From Eremomyces bilateralis CBS 781.70 (lineage: Eukaryota): a stretch of DNA of 64,000 nucleotides. Position 1 is the first letter of the stretch. Every line of letters begins with the position of its first letter. Shown here piece by piece: positions 1 to 46,608 of the stretch. Below the pieces are notes generated by a model, which worked only from the letters and a program-made list of their open reading frames with translations, ran no database searches and was not told the origin of the DNA. A program made the position numbers and the translations under genes. The stretch lies in assembly GCA_010015585.1 (NCBI GenBank), contig ML975149.1; one strand, given 5' to 3'.

Positions 1-37
1 GCTTCAAAGCCAGCAAAGGAATGATAAGGTATCGTAC

Positions 38-1937
38 CTGGGCAGAAAGTCCAGCAGCTCCGGGTGATGCAACTCCACGGTCTCGTAAAACTCATTTTCA
101 CGGTTATTGAGCTGTTTACAAACGGCGGCGCGAGAGAAGCGGTAGACGGTCGAATGTCCGCCGACTTGATGATCGAACGGCTCGAGCTCGACGGCACCGA
201 GGGGGGCTGGTGGCTTCGAACGGCTACGATATTGCGACTTGGTTCGTCTTAGCGGTGCCGGTGTCATGTCGAATTCCTCTACTGCACTCAACTCATCCAC
301 CAGGGCTCTGTTGGAGTCTTCAAATGGCTCACGGGAAGGACCCTCGTCAATCGGATGGAGACTCGGTTCTTCCGTAGCTCGACGACCGACTTCGTGGAAC
401 AGCTGCTTTTTGTCCTGGGACTTGATGGAAATCTCAACCTCTCCGGGGCTTTGGCATAGTTCGTCGGCCTTCCACGCCGTAACCGCATCCTGAACCGGGC
501 GAGGTCGAGTTTCGATCGGTATACCCTTTTTGGGCGACGGTGTCCGGGTCTCTTCTGAGCCTTCTTCATTGAGAGTAACCTGACGATGAGGGAAATACAG
601 TGCTTTTGATATCTCGCGATCGGAGTCGTTTTCATCCTCTGCTGCTTTCTTGAGGGTTATCAAGGTGCTAGGTGAGTCTCTACCCAATGATGATCTTGGT
701 GTATAGGGACGTCTTGGTTTGGTGGAAGGTGAGATGATAGGCTCAGGAGACTGAAGTACGCTGTCTTCCGGGACTGAAGCCTGTTGCTTGTTTTCTGCTC
801 AACCGTGTATTAGCATCTATCGTCCTCATGGATGAATGCAAGGTGAGTTTCATTGGGGGTCCTCTACTTACTTGGTGTATCACGTTGATGGGCTTGGGCT
901 AGTTCAACTACTTTCTGTAGCTTCGGTATCCCGGGAGACTCTTCCTCGTCGTCTCGTTCATCGACCTTTCGATGCTCCCTCTGCGATTGTCTCAGAGACG
1001 CTGCAGCCATCAACTCGCGTAGGTGCTCAGTGCGTCTCTTATCCTCCGCAGCCTCGTTCTCCTTGAAGATCCCTAGGGTATGACTTGCTTTGCGACTGCG
1101 CGCAACCGCACTCATATCCGCCTTGGGCAAGGTCGCTTCGATCTTCTTGTCGACGTGCGACGACTGAGCCGTTTTGCCCCGGGCCAACGTTGGCTTTCCC
1201 TGTCGCCATGACCTGTATATTTTTCGTTCTTCTTCATATTGCGGTTCTAGTGGCGGTGACTGGCCGCGACTGCTGCTTGCAGCCGAATGGGTAGTCAGGG
1301 TCTTGATGGAACTCGGGCTGCTCTTATCTATGGTGTGCGGGTCGTGAGGTTCTATGGTATGGGACTCCCCGCTTGTGCCAATATACTGCCTCGGACTGGG
1401 TTGATCGTCCGAACCGTCCATCGCTCCAGGAGGCCTTGCAATGTGCCGATGTACGCCAATTGGATACGGCATCGGCATTGGCATGGTGGAGGACGACTGT
1501 TTCCCTACACGATGCTTTTGCAGAAATATCGGAGGCTCCTTCAGCCTCTGGGCTGGGATCGCCATCTGCTTGCTCTTCTCAGTCGGAGATCCAACATCAG
1601 CTAGGCTTTCGACCACCGGAGACAGCCGAGGAGAGGATTCTGGCGATTCACGCGTGCTGTACGTAGTGGCGAATATACTATCGCGCTCGTCCAATTGCGG
1701 ACCCTGGGTGAACTTGGATCGAAGGGCTTCGGCGTTGATCGGGGTGGTTTTCGACCTCGCCTCGGATGCGAGTTTGACGGGTGTCACGTCCTCACCGTTC
1801 GAGCTGGCGGGGTGATGCATCGGGCGGTGGCCGTCAGCAGATGAGGAATTGAGGGTGGAGATGTCGCGAGGTCCGCCATGGCGACTCGCGAAGGCGGGTC
1901 TTGCATACTTATCGGGAGGGCGGGGTGGGTTCGCCAT
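38..1937 (-). CDS. KCS1: Inositol polyphosphate (IP6/IP7) kinase, Kcs1-type; 5' part only, gene continues off the left edge
   Basis: Exon 1937-872, intron 871-795 (GTAAGT..GCTAAT..CAG), exon 794-38 (phase consistent, no stops), next donor GTACGA at 37. Motif VELEPFDHQVGGHSTVYRFSRAAVCKQLNNRENEFYETVELHHPELLDFLPRY is the start of the fungal Kcs1 kinase domain; RSRKASHTLGIFKE lies upstream. Confidence 0.88.
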
Positions 1938-3620
1938 GTTCGGGACATTGGAGAGACCACACTCTCACGACAACGAACCGCCTAGGGAGGGGTGGGTGGA
2001 TGAGAGAGGACGCAGCCACGGTGTCGGTGCGTGCTTGTCACTGATCTACTCTGTCAGTCCGCACAGTGGATGTCCGTTCCGTACTCTTCATTCTTGCGAT
2101 TATCAAGGGATGTGGGGCGAGGATGAAGTGGTGGCGGCGGGCAAGGACCGATCGGTGTGAATCAATACGTACCGGTGGAGAACCCCACGGACAATAACAC
2201 GAGTTGTCAATCCAAGCTCGGCGATTGCGATCCAATGGCGGTATAAGATGGGGTGGTTGCAAGCGGATGCGTGAGTCGGATGGTGGAGGTTAAAGCGTCG
2301 AATTTGTTGCGATGGATGAAGGAGGAAAAGAAATGGCGTTGGAAGTCAATTGGCGATCGCACAACGCGGAACGACAACGAGCATGACGTTTTGGGCTTGG
2401 CAGATTTCGTATTGTTCTCAACACCAACTGGGGGGATTCGGATGTAACAACCGGAACTTTCTATTCCTATACGCTCGACCGCTGGATTCTGTGCCTCTCT
2501 GTTCAAGTCCGGAACCTAGATGAACCCGATATTATAGGTCTGATGGCTGTTCATCTATCGTCCATTAATGTTCTTCCTTTCTACCCACGTTTTCTCCCCC
2601 GTTCATTCCGCTGGTACTCCGCACAGCCCAGGTAGTGGATCACCCTTCCAGCTTGTCCAGGTCCCAGCAAATCTTTCCACCATGCTGCAGTGGGACATAT
2701 AAAATAGTCTTCCACATACATATGTACTTGGTACTATGGATGATCCAATCCGCATGTATCCTGGTCTTCATGTTCCAATGTCTCGTCCTCATCCATCATC
2801 AATACGATCCCAAAGCCCTATTCATTCCATTGTGTATCTCCCTGGACGATCCGCCCATCCATCATTCACCGCTGCTTTCCAATCCCGAATCCCATTGATT
2901 GAATCCATCGACCATTTCCTTCCAATCATCCAAGAACGTGGTCCAGATCGTGCATATGCCAGGGGGACGCGGGTCCTGCCCTGCTGGGAACCTACGTCTG
3001 GCAGCGCGTTGGAGACGATTGCCGCCCCCTCGACCGCGATAGACGCGGGTGCTTCCGGACCTCCGTTCGTGATCAACGACCGATCTGTTTTTATATTCAG
3101 ATGGGTGGATCCTCGGCCTTGCTGGTTCATGCGTTGCCTATAGTCCCTAGGCTATCAACGGACCTTCGGCCCCTTCGATCGCCACCAGCTCCGTCGTTAA
3201 TGAAAAGGTAGTGTATCCGGTACTCGTTGGATTATTACTTCGGCGTGTAACGATCAAAGCTCATCGGTTGAGCCCCCGCATTCAATGGACGAATTCCTTT
3301 CTCTGAGTCGTAGGTGCGCTATTTTCTTGTCCTCCAGTACTCTATGCCGGCCGATCCCTGCCTGAATATAAATACTTCGTAGCGTCATCCCGTTGTTTAG
3401 GCTCCATGAGTGATTTCTGGGCGCCTTTAACCGCTTCGATCGTTCGACAGGTCCTTAAATTCCGGTTTAAACACTCAACGCGACGGTCCGCCCGATTTCC
3501 GTTCAAAGAGACGTCCAGAAGCCCAACACAGATATTGCGAGCCTCTTACCCATCATACAAAGCTCTTGCCAAATCTAGACGCCCCTAGTACACTGACAAG
3601 CCAAAGAATTATCTCTCCGC

Positions 3621-3790
3621 AAAAAAACAAGAACAAAATATACGCCCCTGCCCGGACTCGAACTTCCGATGTGCATAATTCGAGAGATGAACAACTGGTC
3701 CGATCCTTGGATGGCCAGCTGCCTCTCTCCCCTATAGACTTCCACAGCAGTTTTATCGGCTGTACTAACGACCCGGCCGTTTTCCGCTGG
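3621..3790 (-). ncRNA. Candidate RNA polymerase III-transcribed structured RNA (not a canonical tRNA)
   Basis: On the minus strand: TATA-like tract about 3817-3810, A-box TAGTACAGCCG 3767-3757, G:U-containing hairpin 3729-3682, B-box AGTTCGAGTCC 3664-3654, T4 at 3638-3635 and T7 at 3627-3621. Acceptor and T stems do not close into a cloverleaf. Confidence 0.5.
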
Positions 3791-4177
3791 GAAGATTGGG
3801 TTGGAAGAGTATATATATTCGATTCTTATTCATCGTAGAAGGGGGTGAATGGATCCATTTGGAATTGGCTGGGTTGCGTCGATTAGGGAGGGGAATTGCA
3901 CAGTCACGTGGAGCAATAGGTCATGGCGATTGACTGGATTGTGTTGGTTTTTTTATGGTTACTCTCCGGATACCATGTCGTCCTTCTATTTAGCTATTCC
4001 CACTGCCCGACGCGAGGCCCTTGCTCGCCTCCATGGCTCACTCACCTCACAATGGATGGACCCATGCGCGAGGGAGCAAGCCTTCCATTTACGGTTCTCA
4101 ATTTCCCGCGGATCAACACCCTTCCCCCCCCCTACCTCCCCTCAAAGAAACGCGTACCACCCCATCCCTCACCGCAC

Positions 4178-6308
4178 TCAAGCCCACCACCCCGACCCCT
4201 GATTCCCCTCATACGGATTCAGGTATTGTATCGCCTCACCCACCACCTGCTCCACCTCCACCTCCTGGGTCCCCTGCCCCGCATACTCGAACGGCGCGTG
4301 CGCCTTCCCCACCATTACGCCATTCATCGGTGATTTGCGATGGGTGGTAGATGATGGCGGGGCCCATGAGGTGGCCACCAAGTTCGAAGGCGCAGGTGGG
4401 TATGCGTTGATGGCGTTCCATCCGGCTGTGGCGGGTGGAGGTGCGGTGGTGGGTGGGGAGGGAGAGAAGAGCGGGTGGGAGGTGGATTGGGTGGGCGTGA
4501 TGGTGGGGTCGTTGCGGGGGGGAGGGTCTGTGGATTGGAAGACGTAGGGAGGGTCGCCGTTGAGGATGGTGGTGAAGGAGTCGGTTAGGGAGAGGCTTCC
4601 GCGTTGGTGCTTGTGCGGAGGAGAAGGGGAATGAGTCGAGTCGAGGCCCTGGGAGGTGGGGACGCGCTTTTTGGACTGAGGGTTGTTGCGCGGTTGGGTT
4701 GGGAGCTCGGTGGCGGAGTGGTGGATTGCGCCGTTGCGGGGATGGTCAAGATGATGAGGCTCTGGGGCACGGAGATATTCGCCGGGAGACCAGGAGATCC
4801 TGCCGTCGTCGGATAATTCCATAGCTTGGCCAGCGTCGCCATCATGCGCGTGAATCTCCTCCTGTAGAGCTTGCTCTATGCTTCGCTCCAACAATTGTGT
4901 CTGTTCCGTTTCGCTTCCAGGTTCCCCCGCCACGACCATTCCGGCTCGCTTTCGTTCCCCTTCCAGCCCCTTCTGCCGCCTTCTCCTCTCCATCTGCTTC
5001 CGCTCATATTCCTCAATCGTCAGCACCGCCCCATGGTTTCGCTGGTGGATCTCGAGAATATGCTCCTTGACCGTCTTCCCTTCGGTATCCCGATCATCGG
5101 TGATGGCGGAGTTCGTCACTTGGTCCAAGTACTCGATGTCCTCGCGATTCGGCTCGAAGAACCAACGGGTGTTCGCGATGCTGGGACTGAACGAATCACT
5201 CGGGGCGCTCGATTGCGCAGAGAGTGGCGGGGACACCTCCATCGTGGACCGACCCGGAGCGTACGCGAAGTTCGGCGAAGTATGAAACCCACCGCTTCCC
5301 ATCCCCGCGGAATTCTTCCCTCCCCGACGCGGCGGAAGGCCCGCGTCATTGATATGTTGAGCCATCCCGTCCATCCCCCGCGCTAGATGCACGTCGCCGG
5401 AATCGCTCAGCAGAAAGTTATTCCGCACGGCCTTCATGATCGCCGCCTCGGATAGGTGGCGGGCCTCGGCGAGCCCGTCCTCGAGCATGTCGGCCGCTTT
5501 GCGCTTGCGACGGACGTCGTGGGCGCCTTGATACGCAACGCGGAGGCCTTCTTGGGAGAGAATCGTCGCGGCACGGATGCCTTGATCGACATGGTTGAGG
5601 ACGCTCCGAAGGTCAATAGGGGGACGGGTGACATTTCCTTTCCCAGAGGAAATTTCCTGCTGGGAAGATGCAGCGAGGAAATCCAAGTCTTCAGTGTTAA
5701 TATCCACAGCATAAGCCCGTCCGTCATGTGAGGCTAGCAAGCTCTGATCATATGCCCTCGCCATATTCACCGCTTCACTCGGGATGAATCTCCTCCCCAC
5801 GACACTGTTTGCCGCGTTCTCCGAGTTGACCTGTAAGACCTCTATATCGGGGACAGAATCTTGAGGTTCCTCCAACACCGGCCGCTGAGGGGGACTTTCC
5901 CACGGATTGGCCCAGCCTTTGTCGAAGGGTCCCCGGAGTTCTGTGCACAGTAACGGAGGGAGATCGCCGGTTTTGAGATATTGGTTTTTGATGTCCTGGA
6001 TCCTTCGGAGTCGAGCTTCGCGGTCGTCGAGGTCGGTCGAGAGGGTTGGTCCGGGGTTGGAGGTCTTGGATTGAGCGGAAGGAAGATGTCTGGATGGGGA
6101 GGGGTGATTTAAGGCAGCTGGACAGAGTGTATTAGAATCACGGCAGTACTGGTAGACATATGATATTTAGAAAAGGCATATGAAGGGACTCACTTTTGTT
6201 TTTCGAGTGACGATGCTGGGCCCCGATACGTTCTATCGATCTCGGGTTAGCGCTGGACCAGATAAATGGGAAGTCAACAATACCATGGAGCGTCTCGTCC
6301 CTCGCCAT
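4178..6308 (-). CDS. Conserved fungal hypothetical protein (LRGPFDxGWxNPW motif), Pro/Ser-rich C-terminus
   Basis: The 566-aa ORF stays open upstream to an acceptor at 6118 (CTAAT..CAG), adding RLRRIQDIKNQYLKTGDLPPLLCTELRGPFDKGWANPW, a motif I recognise from uncharacterised Pezizomycotina proteins. Putative exon 1 6308-6194 with GTGAGT donor is phase-compatible; the start codon is uncertain. Confidence 0.7.
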
Positions 6309-44810: not shown

Positions 44811-46608
44811 ATGGACGAACCGCGAAAGGCGCTCCGAGTAGCATACGAAGGCTGCGTACGACTCCCGTTTTCTGGCCACAGGGACATGTACTGACTGTTC
44901 TCAGGGCCATGGAACACTCGATGCCATCTACGCTTCTACGGAGAAAGCCTGCGAGGCGAAAGGGTGGGATGGGATAGATCTGTTGATTATTGGAGGGGAT
45001 TTCCAAGTATGGCATTGAACACCCCCACTCGAAGCAAGATACCAATTCTGACGCATGCAGGCCGCTCGCAACGCCGCCGACATGAATACCATGGCAATGC
45101 CCCCGAAATACCGCACCATGGCCGACTTCCACCGCTACTACTGTGGCGAGCGAACCGCACCCTACCTCACCATCTTCATCGGCGGCAACCATGAAGTGAG
45201 CAACTACCTTCAGGAGCTCTTCTACGGCGGCTGGGTGGCACCAAATATCTACTTCATGGGGAACGTGAACGTGGTCAAGCTCGCCGGCGTCCGCATCGCG
45301 GGGTTGTCGGGGATCTGGAAAGGGTATAGCTACAACAAGCCGCATATCGAACGGCTGCCGTATAACGACGGCGAAATGCGGAGTATTTACCATGTGCGGG
45401 AAGTGGATGTCCGGAAGCTGCTGAGGATACGGGAGCCTGTGGATGTTGGCATTAGTCATGATTGGCCCCGCGGGGTGGAATGGCACGGCGACTGGGCGCA
45501 ATTGTTTAGGAAGAAGAGCCAGTTTGAACAGGAGGCGAGGGATGGCACGCTGGGGAGCGTGGCGGCGGAGAAGGTGCTCGATCGAATCCGGCCGAAATAC
45601 TGGTTCAGTGCGCATATGCATATCAAGTTCGCCGCGATCGTCAAGCATCAACCTGGCGTGGCGTCGCTGGGAAGCCGGTGGAGCAGCAAGGGACAGAGCC
45701 ATGAGGCGAAGGCGGGTCCTGCGACTGCGCCGGTAAAAAACGCGGATGAGATCAACCTAGATCTTGGAGACGAGGACAATAAAGCCACTAGCGGTAACCC
45801 CGATGAGATCGACCTGGACATGGACGATGAGGACGCGGCGCCGAAGCCTGATGTCCCCAAAGATCCAACTACCACCAACGATCCCGATCTTGTTCCAGAT
45901 TCCGTTCGGGCCGAGCTTCCTGAGGCCTTCCAGAAGAAACCGCAAGAGGAACAACAAGAGAAATCGAGGGCATGGTCGCCTCCTCCACCGGAGATCTCGA
46001 ATCGCGCCACGCATTTCCTTGCTCTCGACAAGTGTTTGCCTGGTCGACATTTTCTGCAGCTCCTGGAGATTCCAACGAGCGAGGACATTGCCGATGAAAA
46101 GCCTCGACTCGAGTACGATCCAGAATGGCTTTCCATTGTCAAGGCCATGGCCTCCGAGACTACGATCGGCGAAGGTGCCGAAGTCCCACCTTTCTTGGGC
46201 AGCACGACATACTACGAACGCATCGACGAAAATCGACGATGGGTGAGCGAGCACGTCGGTGACACAAAGATATATATTCCGGAGGACTTCAGCATCACTG
46301 CACCGGTTTATGATCCAGAGATGGGCGAGCGGACCGGTGAGATGCCGCGGGAGTACACGAACCCTCATACCGCAGCGTTTTGCAAAATGCTGGAGATTGA
46401 GAATGTCCTCGATGCGACTGAAGAGGAGAGAGAGGAACGGTATCAACGAGGCCCGAAGCCTGATGATGGCAGAGGTGGACGTGGAGGAAGAGGGGGTAGA
46501 GGAGGGTTTGGTAGGGGGAGAGGGAGAGGTGGAAGGGGACGGGGCGGGGGTGGATTTGGCGGGGGAAAAGGTGGTGGATGGCGAGGGAGAGGACGAGGAG
46601 GATACTGA
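44811..46608 (+). CDS. DBR1: RNA lariat debranching enzyme with RGG-rich tail
   Basis: Exons 44811-44855, 44905-45006, 45061-46608. Motifs EGC/GHG, GGDFQ/AARN, PPKYR, FIGGNHE, SIYHVRE, SHDWP, WFSAHMH, FLALDKCLP, LEYDPEWL. Confidence 0.95.

Follow-up and report, generated by a model that had tools for sequence, protein, structure and literature searches.

What is encoded by a locus that carries the signals of a Pol III gene without the cloverleaf of a tRNA? The question arises from the minus strand of a 64-kb window (the whole stretch of DNA analysed), which is part of the 26.9-Mb assembly of a fungus, a Dothideomycete. The initial annotation had recognised a TATA element, an A box, a hairpin, a B box and two T runs there, and had proposed four identities for them. 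By direct reading, all of these motifs were found in place on the minus strand (Table 1).

Pol III-type signals and their comparison with tRNA genes

The co-occurrence of the promoter and terminator signals exceeds chance. As a control, 100 dinucleotide shuffles of the 64-kb window were scanned on both strands, with patterns that had been fixed after the site was seen. Per shuffled window (n = 100, with these post hoc patterns), pairs of A and B boxes occurred 2.05 times on average, A and B boxes with T5 occurred 0.03 times, and the count for all four signals was 0. The real window contains three pairs of A and B boxes, and a T run and a TATA element accompany this one only.

The signals were compared with those of 42 tRNA genes of this genome, a set that is incomplete because the tool scores its best candidates only. 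The B box is of tRNA quality, with a score of 15.0 against a tRNA median of 16.9 and a range from 8.0 (n = 42). The distance from the B box to T4, 25 nt, is the commonest value among the tRNA genes (10/42), and the spacing from A box to B box is 104 nt, as compared with 43-125 nt in the tRNA genes (n = 42). The A box score of 5.9 is below those of all 42 tRNA genes (minimum 6.1, median 11.4), and the GG of the D-loop, which is found in 42/42 tRNA genes, is not in the A box of the element. The type-2 Pol III architecture proposed at the outset is supported with regard to the spacing, the B box and the T-run terminator after it, but the A box is poor. In the U6 and SRP genes of this genome, some 30 nt separate the beginning of the TATA element from that of the RNA, and the predicted start was accordingly put near 3788.

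Table 1. Features of the element and of its neighbourhood (positions in the window)
Feature	Position	Strand	Remarks
Last exon of P0011 (uncharacterised), gene upstream of the element	4178..6117	-	stop about 360 nt before the TATA element
TATA element TATATATA	3810..3817	-	putative TFIIIB site; 48-50 nt ahead of the A box, like tRNA gene L012
Hairpin H1	3739..3794	-	11-bp base with one bulge, A-rich internal loop, 4-bp stem, A box in the loop
Predicted Pol III start	3787..3788	-	TATA + 30, A box at about +21; placed from the U6, SRP and tRNA geometry of this genome
Weak A box	3757..3767	-	A-box-like 11-mer; score 5.9
25-nt block, 21/25 identical to SRP RNA positions 135-159	3724..3748	-	3' base of helix 6, helix 7, 5' base of helix 8
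Hairpin H2	3682..3729	-	20 bp, three G:U pairs, three bulges, 4-nt loop
Strong B box	3654..3664	-	putative TFIIIC site; within a 4-bp T-arm-like stem (3668-3653)
T4	3635..3638	-	earliest possible terminator; 25 nt past the B-box G
T7	3621..3627	-	strong terminator, read from the sequence; 36 nt past the B box
Conserved cis motif upstream of KCS1	2922..2941	-	CACGTT and inverted CCAAT; some 700 nt 3' of the element
KCS1-type inositol polyphosphate kinase gene, 5' part	4..1937	-	PF03770 homologues

A genome scan for the B box with T4 at the fixed distance gave 10 matches, namely three tRNA genes, three copies of one repeat and four unrelated sites. By eye, none of the 10 resembles the element. 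This repeat, whose three copies (L065, L066 and L070) are near-identical, has a B-box-like motif and a T run at its end and is possibly a transposon end. The U6 gene (L002:1501-1900) is intronless, and inspection by eye showed no internal B box; upstream of it lie two B-box-like sites of opposite orientation.

Folding of the predicted RNA and comparison with known RNAs

The minus strand from 3800 to 3621 folds at z -3.40, and 0/200 shuffles folded as well. The fold of the plus strand is poor (z -0.84, 36/200 shuffles). A 48-nt hairpin had been drawn at 3729-3682 with three G:U pairs working on the minus strand only. The three G:U pairs, the absence of A:C mismatches and the preference for this strand were confirmed, and the stem is present. 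However, the 2-nt loop of the drawing is impossible, and the cap consists of a 3-bp stem with a 4-nt loop (H2 in Table 1). The core of H2 (3721-3710 paired with 3705-3692) showed a probability of 0.97-1.0 for all starts tested. A 5-bp stem (ACAGC/GCTGT), also part of the initial drawing, competes with the longer hairpin H1, which had been overlooked. H1 possesses 15 well-supported bp and a 15-nt loop. Its pair probabilities were 0.96-1.0 with an RNA start at 3797, and the full hairpin requires a start at or above 3794. With a start at 3788, H1 is lost and a small hairpin at 3747-3732 replaces it.

The stems have remained intact: they contain four G:U pairs but not a single A:C mismatch, which looks more like RNA-level selection than like a decaying relic (p about 0.06 by our own estimate). 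This integrity is the main hint of selection on the RNA itself. Another strong hairpin (z -3.6) lies on the minus strand at about 4120-4001, just 3' of the P0011 stop, and probably belongs to the 3' UTR of P0011. Thus, hairpins by themselves are not special in this region.

For 3300-4100, an Rfam search up to E 10 gave no match, nor did a search of the entire window at the gathering score. In line with the initial statement, there was thus no local match to 5S, U6, SRP or RNase P/MRP RNA. The U6, U2, U4, SRP and MRP RNA genes were located elsewhere in the genome. For nuclear RNase P RNA, the genome-wide family search gave no match, and such a miss does not show absence. The MRP RNA of this genome is long (467 nt).

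The lack of an acceptor stem and of a tRNA cloverleaf was also upheld, since no tRNA was called at normal or 90% thresholds with introns of up to 300 nt. ARAGORN with introns gave only low-threshold noise. As for descent from a specific tRNA, none of the 42 tRNA genes survived the family-wise test; because this set is incomplete, the ancestor may be absent from it. The best candidate was tRNA-His, whose intron contains a shared 10-mer. This likeness was reached by 6/1500 shuffles singly but by 109/300 family-wise and was rejected; the 10-mer pattern occurs seven times in the genome. A U6-core likeness was rejected as well, since the alignment to the U6 of this genome scored 36, whereas shuffles scored 37 on average.

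The element is single copy in the genome by a DNA search that carries a caveat on repeats. A SINE was rejected on the grounds of the one copy, the absence of a tail and the absence of a clear target-site duplication at the flanks. Transposon-like inverted A/T-rich arms of 16 nt are present at the element and are of low complexity. Inspection by eye led us to discard a spliceosomal intron within the element; the contig of run X2, described below, is unspliced there.

A resemblance was detected to the SRP RNA of this genome (L010:1501-1771; helices assigned from the Rfam alignment, RF01502), which was compared after several other candidate relatives. The 25-nt block (3748-3724) is exactly the junction of H1 and H2, and the bases of the two hairpins pair in the register of helices 6 and 8. 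This match was attained by 4/20000 shuffles and by 6/1500 when the boxes were held fixed. With structure-preserving shuffles, the values were 0/3000 for SRP RNA alone and 39/3000 family-wise over 47 RNAs. The in-register identity was attained by 0/200000 and 0/300000 shuffles, where the latter null keeps the strand composition and the position was chosen post hoc. Among 2786 tiles of the same genome, one reached the SRP score, and this was the element itself. The B boxes of the SRP gene and of the element are alike at 11/12 nt. Upstream of the junction anchor the similarity to SRP RNA is weak (124/5000, 56/3000 and 185/3000 shuffles), and the gapped whole-length alignment was matched by 213/5000 shuffles.

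The RF01502 covariance model gave no match to the element, and its genome-wide search returned only L010. A helix 8 pattern used to search for further fungal SRP RNAs gave one match, a bacterial record without an Rfam match, and none in viral contigs. Since no fungal SRP RNAs were gathered by this pattern, the SRP S-domain model rests on one sequence. The element was absent from the 10 matches of this model in the window and scored 5.7 bits when the model was applied locally. In the reverse test with a model of the element, SRP RNA ranked 9th of 16 and was not significant. Inner helix 8 and the downstream part showed no similarity to SRP RNA. Moreover, a non-collinear 27-nt match (85%) between the SRP flank and window positions 4178-4204 was as good as the junction match. 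Thus, matches of such size arise by chance. The junction 12-mer occurs nine times in the genome versus eight in the control, no similar structure was seen by eye at the seven other sites, and a stringent pattern of junction plus B box gave 0 matches in metagenomes.

The motifs of SRP RNA include the GNAR tetraloop of helix 6, the tetraloop of helix 8 (SRP19 site) and the SRP54 loop, as described in the available text of PMC2905702. In the element, both tetraloops are missing, the loop of H1 being 15 nt long and that of H2 non-GNRA. The symmetric loop of helix 8 (SRP54 site) is missing as well, and H2 has bulges only. All of these motifs are present in L010. Thus, the element is not an SRP RNA. 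An Alu domain and a clear helix 5 were not found in it either. Judging from these comparisons, we place the chance that the element descends from SRP RNA close to even or a little below.

Neighbouring genes, transcripts and conservation

On the minus strand, the P0011 gene ends at 4178 and is followed by the element (3817-3621), the cis motif (2941-2922) and the KCS1-type gene from 1937. Proteins identical to those of two window genes carry the label Eremomyces bilateralis. In a protein search, P0011 matched only itself, and a search in a protein atlas gave no usable match. The gene for the lariat debranching enzyme DBR1 is situated at 45052-46608 of the same window.

Two GT-AG introns, one in KCS1 (795-871) and one in its 5' UTR (2041-2172), are spliced out in a contig of run X2, which we guess to be of RNA type. 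Between 2173 and 4435, the element included, this contig is continuous and shows zero differences, which suggests that Pol II transcripts cover the interval. Since contigs carry no strand, ends or level, X2 neither shows nor excludes a Pol III RNA.

A scan of metagenomes for KCS1 gave at least 74 loci, and among those listed, 40 have at least 4.5 kb upstream. The upstream gene, recognised by a 45-residue N-terminal block of P0011, is kept beside KCS1 in 11 of the 74 loci listed. Nine of these are independent, as two pairs are identical or nearly so. Judged from these protein matches, P0011 and KCS1 form a conserved microsynteny involving a fast-evolving gene. The 20-nt cis motif is present here and in 11/11 syntenic loci among the matches listed (own E 6.7e-4, weakest locus E 0.013). 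Its sequence looks like that of a Pho4/NUC-1-type site next to a CCAAT box, and phosphate control of KCS1 would fit this.

As a check, the initial annotation had named the conservation of the boxes and the hairpin in relatives, with a search of the syntenic interval next to KCS1. No homologue of the element was found in the 11 syntenic loci among the matches listed. A same-strand B box with a T run was detected in the interval of 0/11 listed syntenic loci, except for one poor match inside the upstream gene. BLAST, nhmmer and the model of the element gave nothing significant in the 74 loci listed. With filters off, the model gave nothing in 5 of the 11 listed syntenic loci, and Rfam gave nothing in 7 of the 11. 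A site upstream of KCS1 in a distant fungus (L107:2130-2275) has a TATA element, a B-box-like loop closed by a perfect 6-bp stem, and a T-rich run. It was rejected as a homologue, having no A box, no similarity to the element and no family match.

We also analysed run X4, which derives from a different, closer organism. One contig joins both flanking genes across the site, with coding pieces of about 82% identity (KCS1 pieces, 35 differences/198 nt; upstream gene, 32/181) and 4544 letters between them versus 3716 here. No piece of this contig lay on the element at 80% identity or more; a homologue below 80% would be invisible, and the comparison included no ncRNA positive control. A further run, X5, contributed no matching piece.

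So far, the element is known from one genome. Because the gene order and the 20-nt cis motif are kept in the 11 listed loci and the element is not, it is best read as lineage-restricted. A conserved fungal ncRNA is not supported by these sequence searches, and a fast-evolving orthologue within the order would be compatible with them.

Interpretation of the locus

Among the four identities proposed initially, an orphan unit or a TFIIIC site fits best. With about even confidence, we regard the element as a lineage-restricted orphan Pol III transcription unit that would act like ZOD1, RNA170 and the ETC sites of yeast. The orphan-unit reading is based on the chance control, the tRNA-like spacing, the B box, the strand-specific fold, the absence of an Rfam family, the location of U6, SRP and MRP RNA elsewhere, the lineage restriction and the yeast precedent. 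Counting against it are the A box, weaker than in any of the 42 tRNA genes, the X2 contig across the element, the intact stems, which look more like selection on the RNA than like decay, and the fact that no tRNA ancestor was found, unlike for ZOD1.

In such a unit, TFIIIC would bind to the strong B box, aided by the weak A box, and would then place TFIIIB on the TATA element. Pol III would transcribe from about 3788 to T4 or T7 and yield an RNA of 150-170 nt consisting mostly of H2. By analogy with ZOD1, RNA170 and the ETC sites, transcription would be at a low level and the locus would be occupied by the factors. ZOD1 and RNA170 are described as factor-bound, weakly transcribed orphan Pol III loci in the available text of PMC5356446, and that of PMC4228148 describes yeast TFIIIC sites that block readthrough. 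The likeliest effect of the element would be exerted via chromatin and not via the RNA: situated between the KCS1 promoter and the 3' end of the upstream gene, it would form an incomplete barrier. Like TFIIIC sites in yeast, the bound complex may give this promoter some protection from readthrough. As the X2 coverage is consistent with Pol II reading across the site, a barrier here would have to be leaky. As for its origin, the frame has the geometry of a tRNA gene, and a remodelled fragment of the SRP S domain, minus the SRP19 and SRP54 loops, may make up the body with its two hairpins.

The alternatives that assign a function to the RNA have to be weighed against this. SRP68/72 bind at the junction of SRP RNA. 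An RNA derived from the S domain, in which the junction and the coaxial hairpins were kept and the apical loops replaced, could serve as a decoy or scaffold for these proteins. The 21/25-nt junction match, the pairing of both hairpin bases in the register of helices 6 and 8 and the shuffle tests argue for such an RNA. However, covariance models fail in both directions, inner helix 8 and the downstream part are dissimilar, an equally good 27-nt match arose by chance, the junction pattern has no metagenome match, a clear helix 5 is missing, and the base of H1 lies outside the RNA if the start is 3788. We consider this function unlikely. In the corresponding gene history, a Pol III gene would have arisen from the S domain of SRP RNA, with the helix 6-7-8 junction kept, both apical loops exchanged for new, selected stems and the B box moved behind the hairpins. 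Its RNA of 150-170 nt would bind junction-recognising SRP proteins without SRP19 or SRP54, as a decoy or new scaffold; this, too, appears improbable. A Pol III pri-milRNA, from which Dicer or Argonaute would cut H2 into a guide of 20-25 nt, is in our judgement quite improbable. In its favour, the unit is short and of Pol III type and contains a stable hairpin of 20 bp, and the lineage restriction would fit, but the stem of H2 is short. According to the available text of PMC3547838, the major milRNAs of Neurospora are Pol III products, yet milR-1 carries neither an A box nor a B box, and milR-4 is derived from a transcript that contains a tRNA.

The element might also be no Pol III gene at all but a structured 3' UTR of P0011 or a long KCS1 leader with box-like motifs by chance. 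The RNA-type contig that spans the interval, the second strong hairpin at about 4120-4001, the poor A box and the choice of the scan patterns after the site was seen are consistent with this view. Against it stand the counts per shuffled window (0.03 for A and B boxes with T5, 0 for all four signals) and a spacing that equals that of tRNA genes, and we give it a small probability. It is very unlikely that the locus is inert, as a decayed tRNA gene with a fold-back insertion and a chance SRP match. A D-arm remnant, the small hairpin at 3747-3732, the large hairpin, a T-arm remnant and a trailer can be laid out at tRNA spacing. However, there is no acceptor stem, no tRNA of the incomplete set of 42 passes the family-wise test, and the intact B box, TATA element and terminator speak against inertness. 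Least credible, with hardly any probability, is the view that the element is a fragment of RNase P RNA or has diverged from U6/U6atac as a paralogue. The order of motifs resembles, as we see it, the catalytic core of U6, and a hairpin followed by a P4-like strand presumably recalls RNase P/MRP RNA; RNase P RNA was not located by the genome search, where a miss shows no absence. The U6 alignment is no better than the shuffle mean, no U6atac match was found at the element, and U4/U2 pairing was no better than in shuffles, although the same duplex test also missed the true U6. For RNase P/MRP RNA, there was no local Rfam match and, by eye, no P4 partner strand, and the MRP RNA gene lies elsewhere. 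In addition, minor introns are reportedly absent from Ascomycota (available text of PMC10639083), which argues against U6atac. PMC1636426 is a further source for the U6/RNase P alternative.

The putative orphan Pol III unit shares several properties with ZOD1, iYGR033c, RNA170/ETC5 and the ETC sites of S. cerevisiae, as presented in the available text of PMC5356446 and PMC4228148: these loci are intergenic, single copy and box-driven, lie between two Pol II genes and have neither a cloverleaf nor a known RNA function. In these sources, tRNA ancestors are identified for ZOD1 and iYGR033c, whereas none was found for the element among 42 tRNA genes. ETC sites are described there as conserved, and the element is not. 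It further differs from the yeast loci in its two strong hairpins and possible SRP-derived core, and its occupancy by the factors is a prediction. Orphan Pol III loci have been described mainly in yeast, and the element would be a clean single-copy case in a Dothideomycete, absent from the corresponding interval of the relatives compared. It would provide a tractable example of how orphan units arise and of whether neighbours, here the phosphate-signalling kinase KCS1, become insulated.

Besides a Pol III-type promoter and a near-identical B box, the element has the 25-nt junction block in common with fungal SRP RNA (RF01502), together with two neighbouring hairpins of comparable size whose pairing follows the register of helices 6 and 8. 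In contrast, the B box precedes the hairpins in SRP RNA and follows them in the element, which is without the Alu domain, a clear helix 5, the GNAR loop of helix 6, the tetraloop or symmetric loop of helix 8 and a model match. The precursors of Neurospora milR-1 to milR-4 are likewise short intergenic Pol III-type units with a hairpin and a T-run end (available text of PMC3547838). According to the same text, milR-1 is without A and B boxes and milR-4 lies on tRNA genes, and a small RNA from the element is hypothetical. A literature search, mainly outside subscription papers, gave no fungal SRP paralogue or S-domain-derived element, nor did such a case turn up in a search directed at new Pol III RNAs of filamentous fungi.

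The 7SL-derived RNAs and SINEs of animals (Alu, B1 and BC200) keep the Alu domain and drop the S domain, and fungal SINEs are tRNA-headed. Like them, the element may have originated when a gene for a Pol III RNA was duplicated. As compared with Alu, B1 and BC200, the reverse choice of domain is suggested, and the element is single copy, with the B box at its 3' end and without a tail or a clear target-site duplication. If the SRP link is true, it would be a small RNA gene derived from the S domain, the mirror image of the animal RNAs derived from the Alu domain.
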